Virus record (IMG/VR): IMGVR_UViG_3300028837_002886
Span: 66,932-130,931 of that record
DNA length: 64,000 bases
Direction: 5' to 3' (one strand)
Source of the DNA: a virus
Part shown: positions 8,401 to 14,642 of the stretch, one piece after another
Layout: every line of letters begins with the position of its first letter
Position numbering within the stretch: the first letter of the stretch is position 1
Position numbers and translations under genes: made by a program
Notes under the pieces: model-generated
Told to the model about the DNA's origin: nothing
What the model saw: only the letters and a program-made list of their open reading frames with translations
Databases searched by the model: none

Positions 8401-8660
8401 TCTGCTATTCGTTCTTCTATAAGTCGCCTTACTAAATTAATTTTCGCCTCGGCTGCGGTTTTGAACAGATCTTTTGGCCTCGCGTAATGAGACGCGTTTT
8501 TTCTAAATCTGAAAAAATAGGCACCTACTTTTTCTATCATCTTTACGCTGGATACAGTACCCACAATGGAATTAATATTCACCTTCCATATGGCCCAGCT
8601 GGGTTTTTCGTTTACGCCCCATCCTGTGAAAAGAAAGTATACTACATCTCCCTTTTTCAT
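8397..8660 (-). CDS. Small SH3-like hypothetical protein, paralogue of 6725..6994
   Basis: Sequence similarity to 6725..6994. Confidence 0.7.
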   Translation of the reverse strand: MKKGDVVYFLFTGWGVNEKPSWAIWKVNINSIVGTVSSVKMIEKVGAYFFRFRKNASHYARPKDLFKTAAEAKINLVRRLIEERIAE

Positions 8661-9979
8661 ACTTTACCCCAACCCCACATGTTGAGCATATAGGCCTTGA
8701 AAGCTTTACCTAACAGGTCGGCCTTGTTTATATTATGCTTGACCTTTCTGAGCTTATAACCGTTTATCAATAACGCTTTTTTGATATCCTCAGCTTTCAT
8801 ACTCTTGGTGCCTTCGTATCTATTCCACATACCCTCGAGTTTTCTGATGGTGTCATCTATCCTGTCGTTGATTTTTTGTTTATTATATGGTATGCCAAGT
8901 TTCTTAGTACTGCGCGCTCTAAATAGATCATCGGTGCTTTTATATTTATTCATGGTTTTTGGGCCAAACTTGCTTATTTTAGAAATGCCGAAAACATCAT
9001 TGAGCATGAACATGTTGAAACTTTTCATGATAGGATCCAACTCGTCTCTCAACGGTCCCCAAAGTGCTTGATTGAGTTCCCTAAAGTCCCCGGTAATTTT
9101 TAACAGGGTTTCTCTATCAAGACCCTTGCGGTATTTAACAACCAACCCTTCTATTCTTGGATGTTCCGGTGGGACCTCTACTTCTGGCCCAGCCAGCTTG
9201 GAAACCATTTTGGTGAGGATAATAGAACCGACTTTGTCTGCTATTGTGCGCATTAACTCAAACTGTTTTTCTGGATCCTTTTCTGCGCGCAGTTGTTTTA
9301 TTTCACCAATATTTTTCCAGGCTTTCAAAACAGGTTCAAGTGTTTTTCCTATGTCCTCTTTGTCTATTTTGATGGGACCTTTGAACTCCCAAGCACTTGT
9401 TCTTTTACCAACTACCCTATCTACATCTGCCGGGGTGCCTATATAACTGACTACATCGGATATTACACTCATCTGACCGATCACATCTGCAAGGTCGTTT
9501 AGATTGTATTCGGCATCTACCGGCTCAAAATCTTTCTCTGGATCTACATAACCATGAAAGACAACATAGTTTTTTGTCTCGCTGTATGGTACTATGTTCG
9601 GCACAAAGCCAAATATGATTTCACAATTTATGAAATTTCTATCTAGGCCGTATTTCTTTTTATCTTCTTCGGAGAGCTTCCTGAAACCTTTTTTGATTGC
9701 TTTGAAACCGGCCCTAAAAGCATCGGAGCCCGGATGGGTAATTGGGAATTTTTCATCTATGTTGGCAGAGGGTTTGGCTTTCTTGCTTCTAACATACACT
9801 ACGTTATTGTAATTGTCAAAACCAACCATAAGGTTGGCGCCATCTACTTTTTCGTAAGCTTCGGTGCGACCTTTTAGCAGATCGTTTATAAATCCGATAA
9901 ATCTTGAAGGGGACAGAACTTCATATGGGTGGGCCATGTGACCTGCCGCTCCGCCTTCAAACAGTTGAGCGTTATTCAT
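8657..9979 (-). CDS. RNA ligase-like covalent nucleotidyltransferase
   Basis: Motif I EKVDG, III NCEII, IIIa VVFH, IV IEGLVVK, V LLKI; N-terminal GGAAGHMAHP. Confidence 0.65.
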   Translation of the reverse strand: MNNAQLFEGGAAGHMAHPYEVLSPSRFIGFINDLLKGRTEAYEKVDGANLMVGFDNYNNVVYVRSKKAKPSANIDEKFPITHPGSDAFRAGFKAIKKGFRKLSEEDKKKYGLDRNFINCEIIFGFVPNIVPYSETKNYVVFHGYVDPEKDFEPVDAEYNLNDLADVIGQMSVISDVVSYIGTPADVDRVVGKRTSAWEFKGPIKIDKEDIGKTLEPVLKAWKNIGEIKQLRAEKDPEKQFELMRTIADKVGSIILTKMVSKLAGPEVEVPPEHPRIEGLVVKYRKGLDRETLLKITGDFRELNQALWGPLRDELDPIMKSFNMFMLNDVFGISKISKFGPKTMNKYKSTDDLFRARSTKKLGIPYNKQKINDRIDDTIRKLEGMWNRYEGTKSMKAEDIKKALLINGYKLRKVKHNINKADLLGKAFKAYMLNMWGWGKV

Positions 9980-10021: not shown

Positions 10022-10768
10022 TTATGCGGGCTTGACGCGCTTTTTAGCTTCAGTCTTGGAGATAGGCTTAATTTCGTATGTTCCGTCTTTGTTTACTTTT
10101 TCAATAGCGCCGTATTTCTCGTCATCGCCGATGCGAACGACGCGGCCCGGGACCATTAGATCTTTCTTGCTTGGGGGTTTAGGTTGACCTTGTTGCCTCT
10201 TCTTTTGTTCTTTTTCCAAATGCTTATACAAACCCTCAGTGGTCCATAGCTTTGGATCTTTTACTTTCTTGGCATATCCTTTATCTATTCTCAGACCGGC
10301 ATACTTGCCTGTAGGCATTTTAAGAAGAAGACCAGCAACACTCTTGAGTTCGCCAAGAATGTTTTCATTTATGATCATATCGCCGGCGACGTTATACAAA
10401 TCGTTTGAGAGTTTTCGTCTAGCCGCTCTATCTAAATGAAGTCTTGCAATATGATAAAACTCATGAGCGATGATAAACATTAGTTGTTCGGGTGGGAACG
10501 TATCGATAAAAGCTTCGTTGTAGTAAAAGTTTATTTTGCCGTCCTGTATATTAACGCCCGCGGTTTGTACGTCAGGGTGGTTTTTGATAAATCTACACTT
10601 TAAAAGAAAAGTGGCGAATAAAGCATCCCTCGGAATGAGATGCTGTATCATCGCGCGCAATTTTTCTGGAGGTCTTGTTTCTTCTTGTTCTAACAGCAGG
10701 TTGCCGATCTCGACAAATGGATCTTGTACCCGCTCATTCATTCGTTCAAGTAAACTCTTAAGACTCAC
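10022..10768 (-). CDS. HExxH metallopeptidase (N-terminal half of a DUF2201-type peptidase-vWA protein)
   Basis: TAGVN...YYNEAFI...FIIAHEFYHIARLH...YNVAGDMIIN. Confidence 0.85.
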   Translation of the reverse strand: MSLKSLLERMNERVQDPFVEIGNLLLEQEETRPPEKLRAMIQHLIPRDALFATFLLKCRFIKNHPDVQTAGVNIQDGKINFYYNEAFIDTFPPEQLMFIIAHEFYHIARLHLDRAARRKLSNDLYNVAGDMIINENILGELKSVAGLLLKMPTGKYAGLRIDKGYAKKVKDPKLWTTEGLYKHLEKEQKKRQQGQPKPPSKKDLMVPGRVVRIGDDEKYGAIEKVNKDGTYEIKPISKTEAKKRVKPA

Positions 10769-13070
10769 GCTTTACTCCTGCGAGTTTGAGCATATCTTCT
10801 GTGATTGTTATATCGGGAGTTAGAGGAGAAATAGCCTCTTCCTTTTTGGTTTTCTTTTTCTTTCTCTCGTGAAGGATAAAGTTCTTTGTCTCGGTATTAA
10901 TGAACCGCTGTTTGAGCTCTGGATCTTTAATTCTTACGGCTGCCTTTTCGATAGGCTCATAAGTTTCTCCAGACTTCATCATTTGCATGTACTTCTTTTT
11001 ATCATCTCCAGTTGCTATTTGCTCAAACTGCTTATCGATAGACTGCATGAAGCCATCCCATCCAGCCTTGATGCGATCAATGCCGAGCTGCAACAGGCCT
11101 GCTTTATAATCTATGGCCAGCTGATTCTTCATTTCAAGAGCAGGAGCCAATGACTCAAAGTGGGCTGTAATAATTTCAGCGCCTATGTCTAGGTCCTTAA
11201 CGAATTGACCAACGTTCATGAGGGCTTGAGTCAAAGGATCGCTTTTTGCTGATTCGTAATATTTAATACCCTTTTCCTTCATATATTTCTTCATGGCCGT
11301 TTTGGAACCGAAGTTGGCGATTTCCTGTGCCATTTCATTCATCATAATTTCATGGTCGATGGACTTGCCTTTGATTTTCTCGCGAACACCCTTGTAATTT
11401 AATAGGACATCTCTGGATGAAACCGCTTGCTTTTTGAGTTCTTCATAGTTGAGTACCATTTCGGATACTAGTTCTTCAGAATCTTTGCCTAGAAGTCTAG
11501 GAGCAACGGATTTAAACAAGTCGGCTTGACTGGCTACAATATACGCTCTTGCTCCGACGGCCTCTACATCTTTCATGTCCTTGAATGATTTCTTGCCTAA
11601 TTCCTGATAATTCTTTTTCTGAGCGTCTTCAAGAGCGCTGTACTCTTTCAAGCCCTTTAGTTTGGTCATCCTATCTACAGAAGTCCATGTTGCTGGATCT
11701 AACCAGCCTGATTCGGCTTCGCCGCCGAAACCCTTCATGACTTTCTGAAAGGCCGCTTGAGGATCCTTGCTTTCTTCTGTCCATTTTAGTAGGTTAGATG
11801 TTATGATAGAAAGAACAGGCCCTGTGTTGATTTTCTTGTTTTTGTAATCGATGATGGTGTCTTTCTTGGAGAACTTTAGCCAATCTGGTAAGCTGTACTC
11901 CATTCTCATCTTGTACATAAAACGTCTAAGAGTAGGAGCGTCGAGCTCGTTGACTGCGGTCGCGTTGTCTACTTCGCCCGCGTTGCCGGCTGCGATAGCG
12001 ATTGTATTTTTTGGTAAAACATATGTTCCTATTTTACCTGTAAGCGCCAGGTTCATGGCTGCTTTCATTTGTTCTTGAGAACCAGCGTTGAACTCATCCA
12101 AGAACAATAAGTGCTTCTTCGTGCTGCCTTGCTCTGGCATTACATCCGACACCTGCATTGTAACACCCTTGCGCCCTGTCATTTTTCCTTCCATGTCTAT
12201 AACAGGAAAACCAGCGAGAGTTTCAATAGGCACGTGCTGTATTTGGAGCAATGTTACTTCCCAGCCTCTCTTCTCAAAAAATTCTGTAATGACTTCGGAT
12301 TTGCCAACACCAGGAGGACCATAAAGAAGCATTGACAGCTTTCGCTTTTCGCCAGCTGCGCCTGCTTCGACTATGTCTGCCATATCTTCGAGTGTTTCTT
12401 CCAGGTCGCCGACTGTAATTATACTTTCAGCAACCGGAACGTCTTTTCTTTTACTAAGCTCTGCGGCCATGCTTTGAATGTTGAACTCAGCCTCGGCTTG
12501 TTTTCTGACGCCCATGTATTCCTTCTCTGCCTCTTTGGGTGCCATAACTTCCAAACAAATCTTTTCTAAAAGAATTCTGTCTGCATCGCTTATGGCGTCT
12601 TCGGCGACACCTACCTTGGCGGGTGCCCACAGTGTAGGCCCTAAATAGAATATAGGGACCCCGCCTCTTGGGTGCATCTTGGCTACAGCAACACTACCAT
12701 CTGGCTGCAAATGGCCTTTTATTTTGCCATTCTTGCTGCTCTCGTGTTGATACATCGGCACTTTCTTTTTGCCGCTATAGGTGACGCGCTTCATGTAATC
12801 GAGGTCTGGTGTGACCTTTTCGCCGCGATTGTTATAGAGGGCATATTTGTTATTTACTAACTTACATATCGCAGCATGAAATCTGAACCAGGCTGGCTCA
12901 ATAGCCTTGACTGCTTTTGACATTTTTTCATATATTTTTCTCAAGGCAACAGGAACAGCCGCAAGAGCCTTTTTAACCCCTGCGCCCATCTTTTGAGCTG
13001 TGGCCGGAATGTCAACTTCGTTTAGTTCATCATTCATTTTATCAAGTAGATGATCAAATCCGAGAGCCAT
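10758..13070 (-). CDS. MoxR-like AAA+ ATPase
   Basis: Walker A GPPGVGKS, Walker B LFLDEFN, AAGN, LDAPTLRRF. Confidence 0.9.
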   Translation of the reverse strand: MALGFDHLLDKMNDELNEVDIPATAQKMGAGVKKALAAVPVALRKIYEKMSKAVKAIEPAWFRFHAAICKLVNNKYALYNNRGEKVTPDLDYMKRVTYSGKKKVPMYQHESSKNGKIKGHLQPDGSVAVAKMHPRGGVPIFYLGPTLWAPAKVGVAEDAISDADRILLEKICLEVMAPKEAEKEYMGVRKQAEAEFNIQSMAAELSKRKDVPVAESIITVGDLEETLEDMADIVEAGAAGEKRKLSMLLYGPPGVGKSEVITEFFEKRGWEVTLLQIQHVPIETLAGFPVIDMEGKMTGRKGVTMQVSDVMPEQGSTKKHLLFLDEFNAGSQEQMKAAMNLALTGKIGTYVLPKNTIAIAAGNAGEVDNATAVNELDAPTLRRFMYKMRMEYSLPDWLKFSKKDTIIDYKNKKINTGPVLSIITSNLLKWTEESKDPQAAFQKVMKGFGGEAESGWLDPATWTSVDRMTKLKGLKEYSALEDAQKKNYQELGKKSFKDMKDVEAVGARAYIVASQADLFKSVAPRLLGKDSEELVSEMVLNYEELKKQAVSSRDVLLNYKGVREKIKGKSIDHEIMMNEMAQEIANFGSKTAMKKYMKEKGIKYYESAKSDPLTQALMNVGQFVKDLDIGAEIITAHFESLAPALEMKNQLAIDYKAGLLQLGIDRIKAGWDGFMQSIDKQFEQIATGDDKKKYMQMMKSGETYEPIEKAAVRIKDPELKQRFINTETKNFILHERKKKKTKKEEAISPLTPDITITEDMLKLAGVKRES

Positions 13071-13080
13071 TGTATTCCTC

Positions 13081-14187
13081 CTAAAACTTCGGCTGGTCGT
13101 ACATTATATGATTACCGTCTTTCTTCGGGTATCTGGTGTTAGGGTCTTGAGTTATTACGTAAAAAATATTATCTTCACTCGTGCCATAGACTTTTCCTAA
13201 AGTCTGTTTCGTCATCGGACTAAAGCCGCCATCGGTGAAGATCACCAGAAATGGTGCTGTTGAGTATTTAGTGCCCAGCAAAGACCTAACTACCTGCGTG
13301 TCCGATGGACCCAACTGTAGCAAAAATTTGCCGTCTTTCTCTTCTTTGATTAAAGTTTCGTCGATATATCTAAATATAGAGCCAGGGTCAGTGCCTCCAC
13401 CACCCTTGACTTCTATCTTTTTGCTCGGTTTAAATTCCATGAATTGGTGTACCGTAGTATCCCACTCCATAGCAAACACTTTACCAGAAACACCACCTGC
13501 TGCCGCCTCAAACGTCTTGGCTACAGAGTTGAGTTCGTTGACTACGTTTTGCATGTCGTCAGCAGTGATAGAACCAGAAGTATCAAATGCGAATATCATG
13601 TAGATATAATTCTTTTTTGGTTTTCTTAGAGGCGCCTTCGCTATAATACCGACCTGTGCTTGTGCCTTCCATGGATACATAAGATAGCTTGGATGCTGTT
13701 TTAATTTCTTACCGACCTTATCGGCAAAAAATCTGACTTTTTGTTTGAGCAATCTTGGCCAATCGATTTTGGCATCAATCAAAGGTCCAAAAACTTGTAA
13801 ACTGTTTCCGGCCTCTTTACCTGCCTTACCTCCCATACGATGAGTTTTGCGTTTAGCTTCATCATAAACCCGTTTTATAACACCTCTGGCTGTGCCGTCG
13901 CTCTTGTCGATTATTTTTTCGGTATCGGTTAGAGTGCCACGTTTCTTTTCGCCCTCTTTAGGTTTGGCCTCTCCGGGCTTACCTTTTCCTGGTTTACCTT
14001 CTGCCGGCAGCTCCTCGACACCCTTTTTATCCTCGCCTTCTCCGGGTTGTGGCTGTCCGGCCGGAGGAGGGCCAAAAGGCCATACCTCAACATCTTCGGG
14101 GGCCTGTACGGCACCACCTTCGCCCGGCGCGCCTTGCGGCTGACCGGGCACTATAGGTGTTAGTTCATCGAAAGTATAGGTTGGCAT
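13081..14187 (-). CDS. vWA domain protein (C-terminal half of a DUF2201-type protein)
   Basis: MIDAS DTSGS, GGGGTD, IFTDG; IDWPRLL; G/P/E/K-rich linker at the N-terminus. Confidence 0.85.
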   Translation of the reverse strand: MPTYTFDELTPIVPGQPQGAPGEGGAVQAPEDVEVWPFGPPPAGQPQPGEGEDKKGVEELPAEGKPGKGKPGEAKPKEGEKKRGTLTDTEKIIDKSDGTARGVIKRVYDEAKRKTHRMGGKAGKEAGNSLQVFGPLIDAKIDWPRLLKQKVRFFADKVGKKLKQHPSYLMYPWKAQAQVGIIAKAPLRKPKKNYIYMIFAFDTSGSITADDMQNVVNELNSVAKTFEAAAGGVSGKVFAMEWDTTVHQFMEFKPSKKIEVKGGGGTDPGSIFRYIDETLIKEEKDGKFLLQLGPSDTQVVRSLLGTKYSTAPFLVIFTDGGFSPMTKQTLGKVYGTSEDNIFYVITQDPNTRYPKKDGNHIMYDQPKF

Positions 14188-14195
14188 TTGCTACC

Positions 14196-14642
14196 TTACT
14201 TTTTAGTCTTAAGCTTTGCGGCTGTCGTGTTGAGAACACCGATCGTTTTGTTCTCAAGCAGATCCTTGATTGTCTCAAGTAACTTCAGAAAGTTCATATC
14301 ACCGCTTTTTGATACCTCAACGAATGTGGTAGCATCGATTGCTTCACTCACGCTTTCACCAAATTCGGCTCCCATTCCTTTCTTTGCTGCAACAGCTTCT
14401 TTGGACTTTGGCTCCATTGCGATAATTTCCCACTTATCGTTTTCGAAGTCATTACTGTCCTGCTTGAGACCGATCACGATGTTGTATTTCTCGGGAACGT
14501 ATGCCCACTTAAAACCATACTTTTTCTTGATGGCATCAGGCACGTTCTCACCATGCATCATGGCCTCTGTCAGAGCTTGCTCTGCGCCTTTCTCTGACTT
14601 TTCCTCGAGCATGTCCATAAACTTATCGAGTTGCATGCGCAT
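14196..14642 (-). CDS. Hypothetical protein, first gene of the vWA/AAA/peptidase operon
   Basis: SD AAGGAG; AAGATAA motif upstream. Confidence 0.7.
   Translation of the reverse strand: MRMQLDKFMDMLEEKSEKGAEQALTEAMMHGENVPDAIKKKYGFKWAYVPEKYNIVIGLKQDSNDFENDKWEIIAMEPKSKEAVAAKKGMGAEFGESVSEAIDATTFVEVSKSGDMNFLKLLETIKDLLENKTIGVLNTTAAKLKTKK

Follow-up and report, generated by a model that had tools for sequence, protein, structure and literature searches.

A viral peptidase-vWA protein split within an SH3-like barrel and reordered around the gene for its MoxR-like ATPase

The sequence analysed here, referred to as the window, is a stretch of 64,000 nucleotides (nt) corresponding to bases 66932-130931 of the 130,931-bp virus record IMGVR_UViG_3300028837_002886, which is ~70% complete according to CheckV. 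It contains a module of four tightly packed minus-strand genes in which a DUF2201-type protein, composed of an HExxH metallopeptidase and a von Willebrand factor A (vWA) domain, is split into two genes whose order is reversed around the gene for a MoxR-like AAA+ ATPase. The peptidase half ends in strands 1-3 of an SH3/Tudor-like barrel, and the vWA half begins with a segment homologous to the rest of that barrel. The module probably derives from a two-gene ancestor, formed by a MoxR ATPase and a fused peptidase-vWA protein, through a cut in the strand 3-4 loop of the barrel, which would now re-form in trans.

The order of transcription is a gene for a 148-amino acid (aa) protein (14196..14642, minus strand), identified as an open reading frame (ORF), followed by three genes recognised from their ORFs, Pfam and PHROGs: the vWA half, of 368 aa (13081..14187, minus strand), the enlarged ATPase, of 770 aa (10758..13070, minus strand), and the peptidase half, of 248 aa with a GTG start (10022..10768, minus strand). 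The vWA stop codon is separated from the ATPase gene by 10 nt carrying a GGAGG site, and the ATPase stop and the peptidase start overlap by 11 nt. The peptidase matched PF13203 (DUF2201_N) with an E-value of 4.3e-20 and 72.9 bits (cut-off 23.2), over profile positions 4-149 of 271 only. The vWA protein scored 26.0 bits against PF09967 (E 1.1e-5, cut-off 26.4), over positions 2-70 of 123, and a precomputed match to the same family is found in five of nine close vWA relatives. A single PHROG family of 394 positions, phrog_1314, is divided between the two genes, with the peptidase covering positions 17-162 (E 9e-22) and the vWA protein positions 146-346 (E 2e-18), so that the two proteins are the N- and C-halves of one family. 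BLASTP against the fused protein P0024 (389 aa) placed peptidase residues 51-205 on 20-164 (E 2e-8) and vWA residues 122-277 on 198-343 (E 4e-14), locating the break within the low-complexity linker of P0024.

An earlier note on this DNA, made from the sequence alone, had described the order vWA, AAA, peptidase, with the C-half ahead of the N-half, and had taken a single chain encoded next to a MoxR ATPase as the normal form of these proteins. The split and the reversed order are confirmed by the three minus-strand ORFs, by the division of phrog_1314 and by related loci, and the fused protein beside a MoxR ATPase is indeed the norm. The same genome carries such a canonical pair (L010, G000:C1:59277-61672), located ~17 kb upstream of the module and ~7 kb before the window start, formed by a 364-aa MoxR-like ATPase and, after it, a 434-aa protein of the peptidase-linker-vWA type that lacks the SH3-like insert; this phage thus keeps both a fused and a split version. 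In phages PA5oct and Phosso, fused genes of ~395-420 aa follow the ATPase gene, and a Vibrio N4-like phage has the fused gene, with no ATPase annotated within the stretch examined. Unsplit layouts were found in 41 viral IMG/VR loci, and are of two types. In type A (14 loci and 3 more) a short fused gene (368-469 aa) is preceded by an ATPase of 299-445 aa, and in type B (23 loci) a long fused gene of 500-680 aa is followed by an ATPase of 510-620 aa; L054 is a 24th locus with the type B order and larger genes.

The split arrangement is conserved. Thirteen further peptidases (239-252 aa, 54-91% identity) all have the same end point, and nine further vWA proteins (342-375 aa, 54-87% identity) all have the same starting motif. 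The order vWA, AAA (761-800 aa), peptidase was seen in five of eight related metagenomic loci and contradicted by none: one of the other three is cut and shows the ATPase followed by the peptidase, and two are too short to tell. The catalytic motifs are intact, since H102, E103 and H106 of the zinc-binding motif HEFYH (peptidase residues 102-106; 10451..10465, minus strand) are invariant in 14 of 14 sequences, and D202, T203, S204, G205 and S206 of the metal ion-dependent adhesion site (MIDAS) motif DTSGS (vWA residues 202-206; 13570..13584, minus strand) in 10 of 10. The barrel remnants are likewise invariant or nearly so, next to an adjoining linker that is hypervariable. Purifying selection this strong, in both remnants and with hypervariable sequence next to them, is an argument for their being functional. 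Near the start of the peptidase, an (L/I/V)-x-E element (window ~10688-10696) with an invariant Glu lies ahead of a conserved T-x-P-P-E-K segment.

A pseudogene or an assembly artefact was rejected because of the intact motifs in both halves and the identical ends in all relatives. Rejoining of the chains by read-through, frameshift or trans-splicing was also rejected, given that the C-half is encoded first and that no intein-like sequence was seen.

The peptidase tail, residues 197-248 (10025..10180, minus strand), contains the sequence quoted in the earlier note, PGRVVRIGDDEKYGAIEKVNKDGTYEIKP, and is supported as an incomplete SH3/Tudor-like barrel of three strands and a terminal helix by an AlphaFold2 (AF2) model, a hidden Markov model (HMM) and a profile search. 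In the AF2 model the strands are residues 210-213, 218-225 and 231-236 and the helix residues 238-244; this block has a predicted local distance difference test (pLDDT) value of 73-82, the best part of the model. Twelve columns of the tail are invariant across the 14 peptidases. A profile of seven tails, searched against 1.84 billion representatives, gave 37 matches at E <= 0.001, of which 14 were inspected, the remaining 23 being mostly long multi-stretch matches. Eight of the 14 are other stand-alone DUF2201_N peptidases (167-262 aa), some of them 21-44% identical to one another, that carry the tail at their C-terminus. Four are tandem Tudor/Agenet proteins in which only the strand 2-3 hairpin (profile positions 24-38) was matched, several times over, and one, P0050, is another repeat protein with sub-threshold Tudor matches only. 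The last, P0057, is a fused peptidase-vWA protein of 609 aa in which the tail sequence sits mid-chain.

Other searches with the peptidase were less informative. VIA matches of the window tail to PWWP, Tudor and KOW domains were weak (Z 3.0-3.8, root-mean-square deviation 2.4-5.1 over 36-50 residues) and indicate no more than a common arrangement, and the window peptidase had no SH3, Tudor or KOW match in Pfam. A search of the ESM Atlas with the tail gave no usable match, and a PDB sequence search with the peptidase profile gave a chance-level match only (E 0.16). In tblastn the peptidase matched 75 phage records with coverage of <=60%, and the tail was covered in none of them; no locus related to the single peptidase was found in the viral contigs searched, and the 4.2-kb stretch had no DNA match among deposited phages.

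The intact barrel was found in the fused relatives. P0057 has 90 relatives, and 34 of the 72 proteins P0057-P0128 carry, under a strict pattern, strands 1-3, a loop of 0-34 extra residues and a YKREELVPI-like motif, which in these barrel-bearing forms is followed by a Gly-rich and acidic linker and then by the vWA domain. The variation of the strand 3-4 loop marks it as a permissive site. The AF2 model of P0073, a compact member modelled from a 63-row alignment, has a mean pLDDT of 77.6, rising to 88-93 over residues 241-280. Its predicted strands are residues 243-246, 252-258, 264-267 and 271-273, followed by a 3-10 turn (275-277) and a last strand (278-281), so the linker is modelled as a complete five-strand SH3-like barrel with a 3-10 turn before the last strand; EGY forms strand 4, RED the 3-10 turn and LVPL strand 5. 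For the SH3-like nature of the domain there are three weak and independent pointers: the Tudor/Agenet repeats found with the tail profile, PF20297 (MSSS SH3) matches on four of four fused proteins scanned (E 0.005-0.05, below the family cut-off) and the label YodC/DUF2158 given to P0074 by its source.

When an HMM of 60 positions was built from the 34 intact barrels, all the split peptidases tested matched only positions 4 to 35-44 (E 4e-13 to 1e-3), with the window tail matching positions 4-35 (E 4e-8). The five-strand barrel is absent as one chain from the window peptidase, which has strands 1-3 and the helix, and strands 4-5 are on the vWA protein. The detached piece is vWA residues 1-15 (14143..14187, minus strand), which include the sequence quoted earlier, MPTYTFDELTPI. 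The protein starts M-P-T-Y-T-F-D-E-L-T-P-I, with M1, E8, L9, T10 and P11 invariant in 10 of 10 sequences, and Y4-I12 (YTFDELTPI) line up residue by residue with the YKREELVPI that follows strand 3 in the fused relatives. In 334,779 residues of ORF translations, a loose nine-residue pattern for this motif was met 30 times: at residue 4 of split vWA proteins in 11 cases, just after strand 3 of fused proteins in 13 and elsewhere in six. Its invariance, its collinearity and the P0073 model support a homology of the vWA N-terminus, as judged from sequence, to strand 4, the 3-10 turn and strand 5 of the intact barrel. With strands 1-3 at the end of the peptidase and strands 4-5 at the start of the vWA protein, the gene was cut inside the barrel, in the strand 3-4 loop.

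The rest of the vWA leader also has its counterpart in the fused proteins. A second short conserved motif, DVEVWPF (residues 32-38; 14074..14094, minus strand), has E34, W36 and P37 invariant, and the E-V-E-I-E-like motifs of the fused linkers are collinear with DVEVWP, in a region left disordered by AF2; it could be an internal MIDAS ligand, an ATPase docking site or a cleavage site. It is followed by a Pro/Gly/Lys/Gln-rich linker (residues 39-84; 13936..14073, minus strand), hypervariable in length and sequence, that corresponds to the low-complexity linker of the fused forms. Three observations made from the letters of this DNA, namely a peptidase ending in an incomplete SH3-like barrel, a vWA start resembling the missing end of that barrel and a flexible linker behind it, are thus borne out, and the fused homologues with an intact SH3 that were proposed as a check do exist.

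Whether the two pieces associate was addressed by complex prediction with peptidase residues 190-248 and vWA residues 1-45. The median score was 0.40 (runs of 0.39, 0.40 and 0.41), which supports the pairing weakly, and three controls gave 0.00, 0.02 and 0.00; the runs agreed in at least 94% of contacts, and the pLDDT of the partner was at least 57. In calibration, 58 of 80 solved complexes passed the mark, as did 2 of 110 mismatched pairs; among scores of <=0.60 the passes came from only seven of the 80 solved complexes and from both of those mismatches. These counts hold only roughly for the present pair, for which both partners were entered as alignments made for this analysis, and since the pieces are halves of a split domain, the pass may reflect likeness to solved SH3-like folds. 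The independent homology makes the pairing likely beforehand, which is the condition under which a weak pass carries weight. The earlier note had supposed that the halves re-associate by beta-strand complementation. The cut inside the barrel stands; the physical re-association is suggested by the homology and by a complex score that is weak and was given without contacts.

Several points weigh against re-assembly of the barrel. The score of 0.40 falls in a band where a pass is wrong more often than not, except when the pairing was already likely, and the prediction reported a score without an interface, so that strand complementation as such was not visible. When the peptidase was modelled by itself, AF2 gave a poor overall result (mean pLDDT 58.4, predicted template modelling score 0.35), and the tail in that model, three strands under a helical cap, might be a mini-domain that needs no partner. 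This terminal helix (I/L-T/S-x-E-E-A-K-K-I-L) is conserved in all the split forms and is not obvious in the fused ones, and could replace the missing strands or cap the open barrel. The 12-residue vWA motif was not significant against the barrel HMM (best P0020, E 5.5), and its homology is argued from position, collinearity and the rarity of the pattern. In addition, 38 of the 72 long fused relatives have no barrel, which indicates that it is not essential for peptidase-vWA function. Finally, regions of the ATPase specific to the split systems, or the 148-aa protein as a partner, could be the real docking platform.

This last point concerns the two remaining proteins of the module. The ATPase scored 26.6 bits with AAA_5 (PF07728, cut-off 22) over residues 247-384, with AAA also above its cut-off, and matched phrog_1297 (E 1e-25); Walker A (GPPGVGKS) and Walker B (LLFLDEF) are legible in its translation. 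The AAA+ core, residues 244-469 (11664..12341, minus strand), is the sole part homologous to the ATPases of unsplit systems, as judged from hhalign comparisons with type A (probability 99.4, E 7e-22, residues 247-469) and type B (probability 97.0, E 9e-11, residues 244-469). No counterpart of the regions outside 244-469 was detected by hhalign in type A or type B ATPases, nor any similarity between these extensions and the N-extensions of type B ATPases. The ~240 N-terminal and ~300 C-terminal residues had no match in Pfam, in PDB by sequence or in the unsplit-system ATPases, and the PDB sequence search with the ATPase gave nothing. The 148-aa protein, the first in the conserved four-gene block, had no Pfam or PHROG match. 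Its homologues (E 2e-48 to 4e-58) are encoded directly upstream of the vWA gene in L003, L004, L006 and L008, the gene thus preceding the vWA gene in four of the four split loci that reach that far, and none was found in the type A or type B loci searched. The protein is possibly a fourth subunit.

In one alternative, which we regard as unlikely, each remnant would dock on a unique region of the ATPase or on the 148-aa protein, so that the ATPase would act as a hub and the remnants would not pair. The ATPase extensions without counterpart in the type A and type B systems, the restriction of the 148-aa gene to split loci, the tail helix specific to the split forms and the weak complex score all fit such an arrangement. 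However, both remnants descend from one contiguous and confidently modelled barrel, which makes mutual fit the default expectation, and the tail and the vWA start scored 0.40 together, whereas the three controls gave 0.00-0.02. A further point against it is that the same tail is kept by P0048, P0056 and P0061, more distant split peptidases that are only 21-44% identical. A second alternative, in which the tail is an autonomous chromo/Tudor-like reader of a peptide or nucleic acid and the vWA start has no relation to it, being a short linear motif that might serve as a MIDAS ligand or as a signal for degradation or processing, appears improbable. The three strands and C-terminal helix modelled at pLDDT 73-82 would suit a reader, as would the VIA matches to PWWP, Tudor and KOW domains, low as their Z of 3.0-3.8 is, and the second conserved acidic motif of the vWA leader is left without explanation. 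An unrelated motif would not be expected, however, to be collinear with strands 4-5 of the very same barrel in the fused relatives, in a pattern that is rare elsewhere (six of 30 matches).

The earlier note had also proposed that the vWA half, lacking an LxE leader, could be co-packaged with the peptidase. On this view an LxE-type leader would bring the peptidase into the capsid, and the vWA half, which has no leader of its own, would come along by way of the split barrel; this explanation found no support and is very improbable. Of the 14 sequences, 13 have an (L/I/V)-x-E at peptidase residues 25-27, which would fit a processing site and is not diagnostic of one, and a role in virion assembly and processing has been proposed for the fused jumbo-phage system (PMC7824862). 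On the other side, neither a T4-type prohead protease (PF03420) nor gp23 (PF07068) was found in the 131-kb record, both weak negatives given that the search controls matched nowhere and that the record is ~70% complete. The module also lies among genes for nucleic-acid enzymes, ~40 kb away from the nearest PHROG match of a structural family (tail, baseplate, virion); the distance to the tail and baseplate matches is ~57 kb.

Re-formation of the barrel from its two pieces is the explanation retained here as the more probable, with the following course of events. The ancestor would have been of the long type, with an accessory SH3/Tudor-like barrel in the linker between the peptidase and the vWA domain. 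Its coding sequence would have been broken in the strand 3-4 loop, leaving the peptidase part, now downstream of the ATPase gene, with strands 1-3 and the short helix at its C-terminus, and a vWA protein that opens with the remaining elements (strand 4, the 3-10 turn, strand 5) and continues into the former flexible linker. The present gene order could have come about by tandem duplication of either unsplit layout with loss of the outer parts, or by translocation. The two pieces would re-form the barrel in trans and tether the peptidase to the vWA adaptor, and with this tether the remodelling pair of ATPase and vWA protein would still deliver its target to the peptidase. The most likely mechanism, drawn from general knowledge of such systems, from Foldseek matches and from PMC7824862, is that the vWA domain would bind the target through its MIDAS site, the ATPase would remodel it and the tethered zinc peptidase would cut it. 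In Foldseek, the fused model matched the vWA domain of NorD in NorQD complexes (E 5e-4 to 1e-3) and the MIDAS domain of MDN1.

A tree of the peptidase core was built by a quick method with Shimodaira-Hasegawa-like approximate likelihood ratio test (SH-aLRT) support only, from 64 rows: 16 of 21 split forms, 26 barrel-bearing fused forms, 13 long fused forms without barrel and nine of type A. The split forms P0002, P0007, P0011 and P0013 and the fragment P0055 were left out. The split clade of the window comprised 12 rows (support 95), and a second split group, P0048/P0056/P0061, was sister (93) to the fused type B clade (99). The fission possibly happened more than once, and the tree is also compatible with a single origin of the split. 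P0060 and P0047 had very long branches. The grouping of the 434-aa fused copy of this genome with the split clade (92) was not trusted because of its long branch. A gene-context search found no loci for the split peptidases P0061 and P0035, and for P0056 and P0048 its yield was limited to unsplit type A loci or peptidase-core matches.

The module itself is known. A MoxR ATPase whose vWA cochaperone is fused at its N-terminus to a metallopeptidase was described from group 2.2 jumbo phages by Iyer et al. 2021, who propose that the chaperone-cochaperone pair acts in virion assembly with peptidolytic processing (PMC7824862). The window resembles that system in having a PF13203 peptidase, a PF09967-type vWA domain and a MoxR-like AAA+ ATPase in one module. 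It differs in that the peptidase and the vWA domain form one chain beside a 340-445-aa ATPase in that system, whereas here they are two genes reversed around a 770-aa ATPase, with the barrel cut and a 148-aa gene added. The long fused proteins of uncultured phages (P0057, P0073 and relatives; IMG/VR loci L014-L040) share with the window the linear order of elements and the homologous barrel halves, but they are single chains of 500-680 aa whose gene comes first, followed by a 510-620-aa ATPase, and the window's clade is not nested inside them in the peptidase tree. MoxR-vWA pairs of the NorQ-NorD, CbbQ-CbbO and RavA-ViaA type act as metal-insertion or remodelling systems. They are alike in combining an AAA+ MoxR ring with a MIDAS-bearing vWA adaptor, and unlike in having neither a peptidase nor an SH3-like insert.

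The new elements are a fission that falls inside an SH3-like barrel, the changed order of the genes and an ATPase of enlarged size. No published description of the split form was found in the literature searched (supplements not covered). The nearest concept found in print is the split SH3 of MAGUK proteins (CASK, PMC3914952) and CaV beta subunits (beta1a, PMC12650144), whose final strand comes from a distant segment. There too a barrel is completed by a strand from elsewhere, but the pieces belong to one polypeptide with the GK domain between them; the comparison is mechanistic, and no homology is claimed.

Gene fission usually falls between domains, and the present case is a conserved and selected fission inside a small domain, with unsplit relatives that show which strands went where. 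If the halves re-assemble, this would be a natural two-gene fragment complementation, with parallels in split inteins and in the intra-chain split SH3 of MAGUK proteins, and a fused enzyme-adaptor would have been taken apart and its genes reordered while the physical link was kept. The barrel halves could then plausibly, if still tentatively, be viewed as a natural and genetically separable plug-and-socket that arose by fission inside a domain loop and holds two phage proteins together non-covalently, with a socket of ~40 residues (strands 1-3) and a plug of 12 residues (strand 4, turn, strand 5). If this is true, it would provide protein engineering with a compact pair of peptide and domain that could be moved as a small orthogonal heterodimerisation tag, and the tail and the peptide could serve as a handle for pulling down targets of phage MoxR-vWA-peptidase modules.

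Two features of the surroundings may be added. Near 17-20 kb of the record lie genes whose PHROG matches are to a tail protein and to a baseplate wedge subunit. Directly downstream of the peptidase gene, the window (8657-9979) encodes a 440-aa protein with a weak match to an RNA-ligase PHROG (E 0.0075). ORFs of 452 and 434 aa, which resemble it in size, lie downstream of the peptidase in L002 and L003, and the 440-aa protein probably reflects synteny and would stand outside the module.

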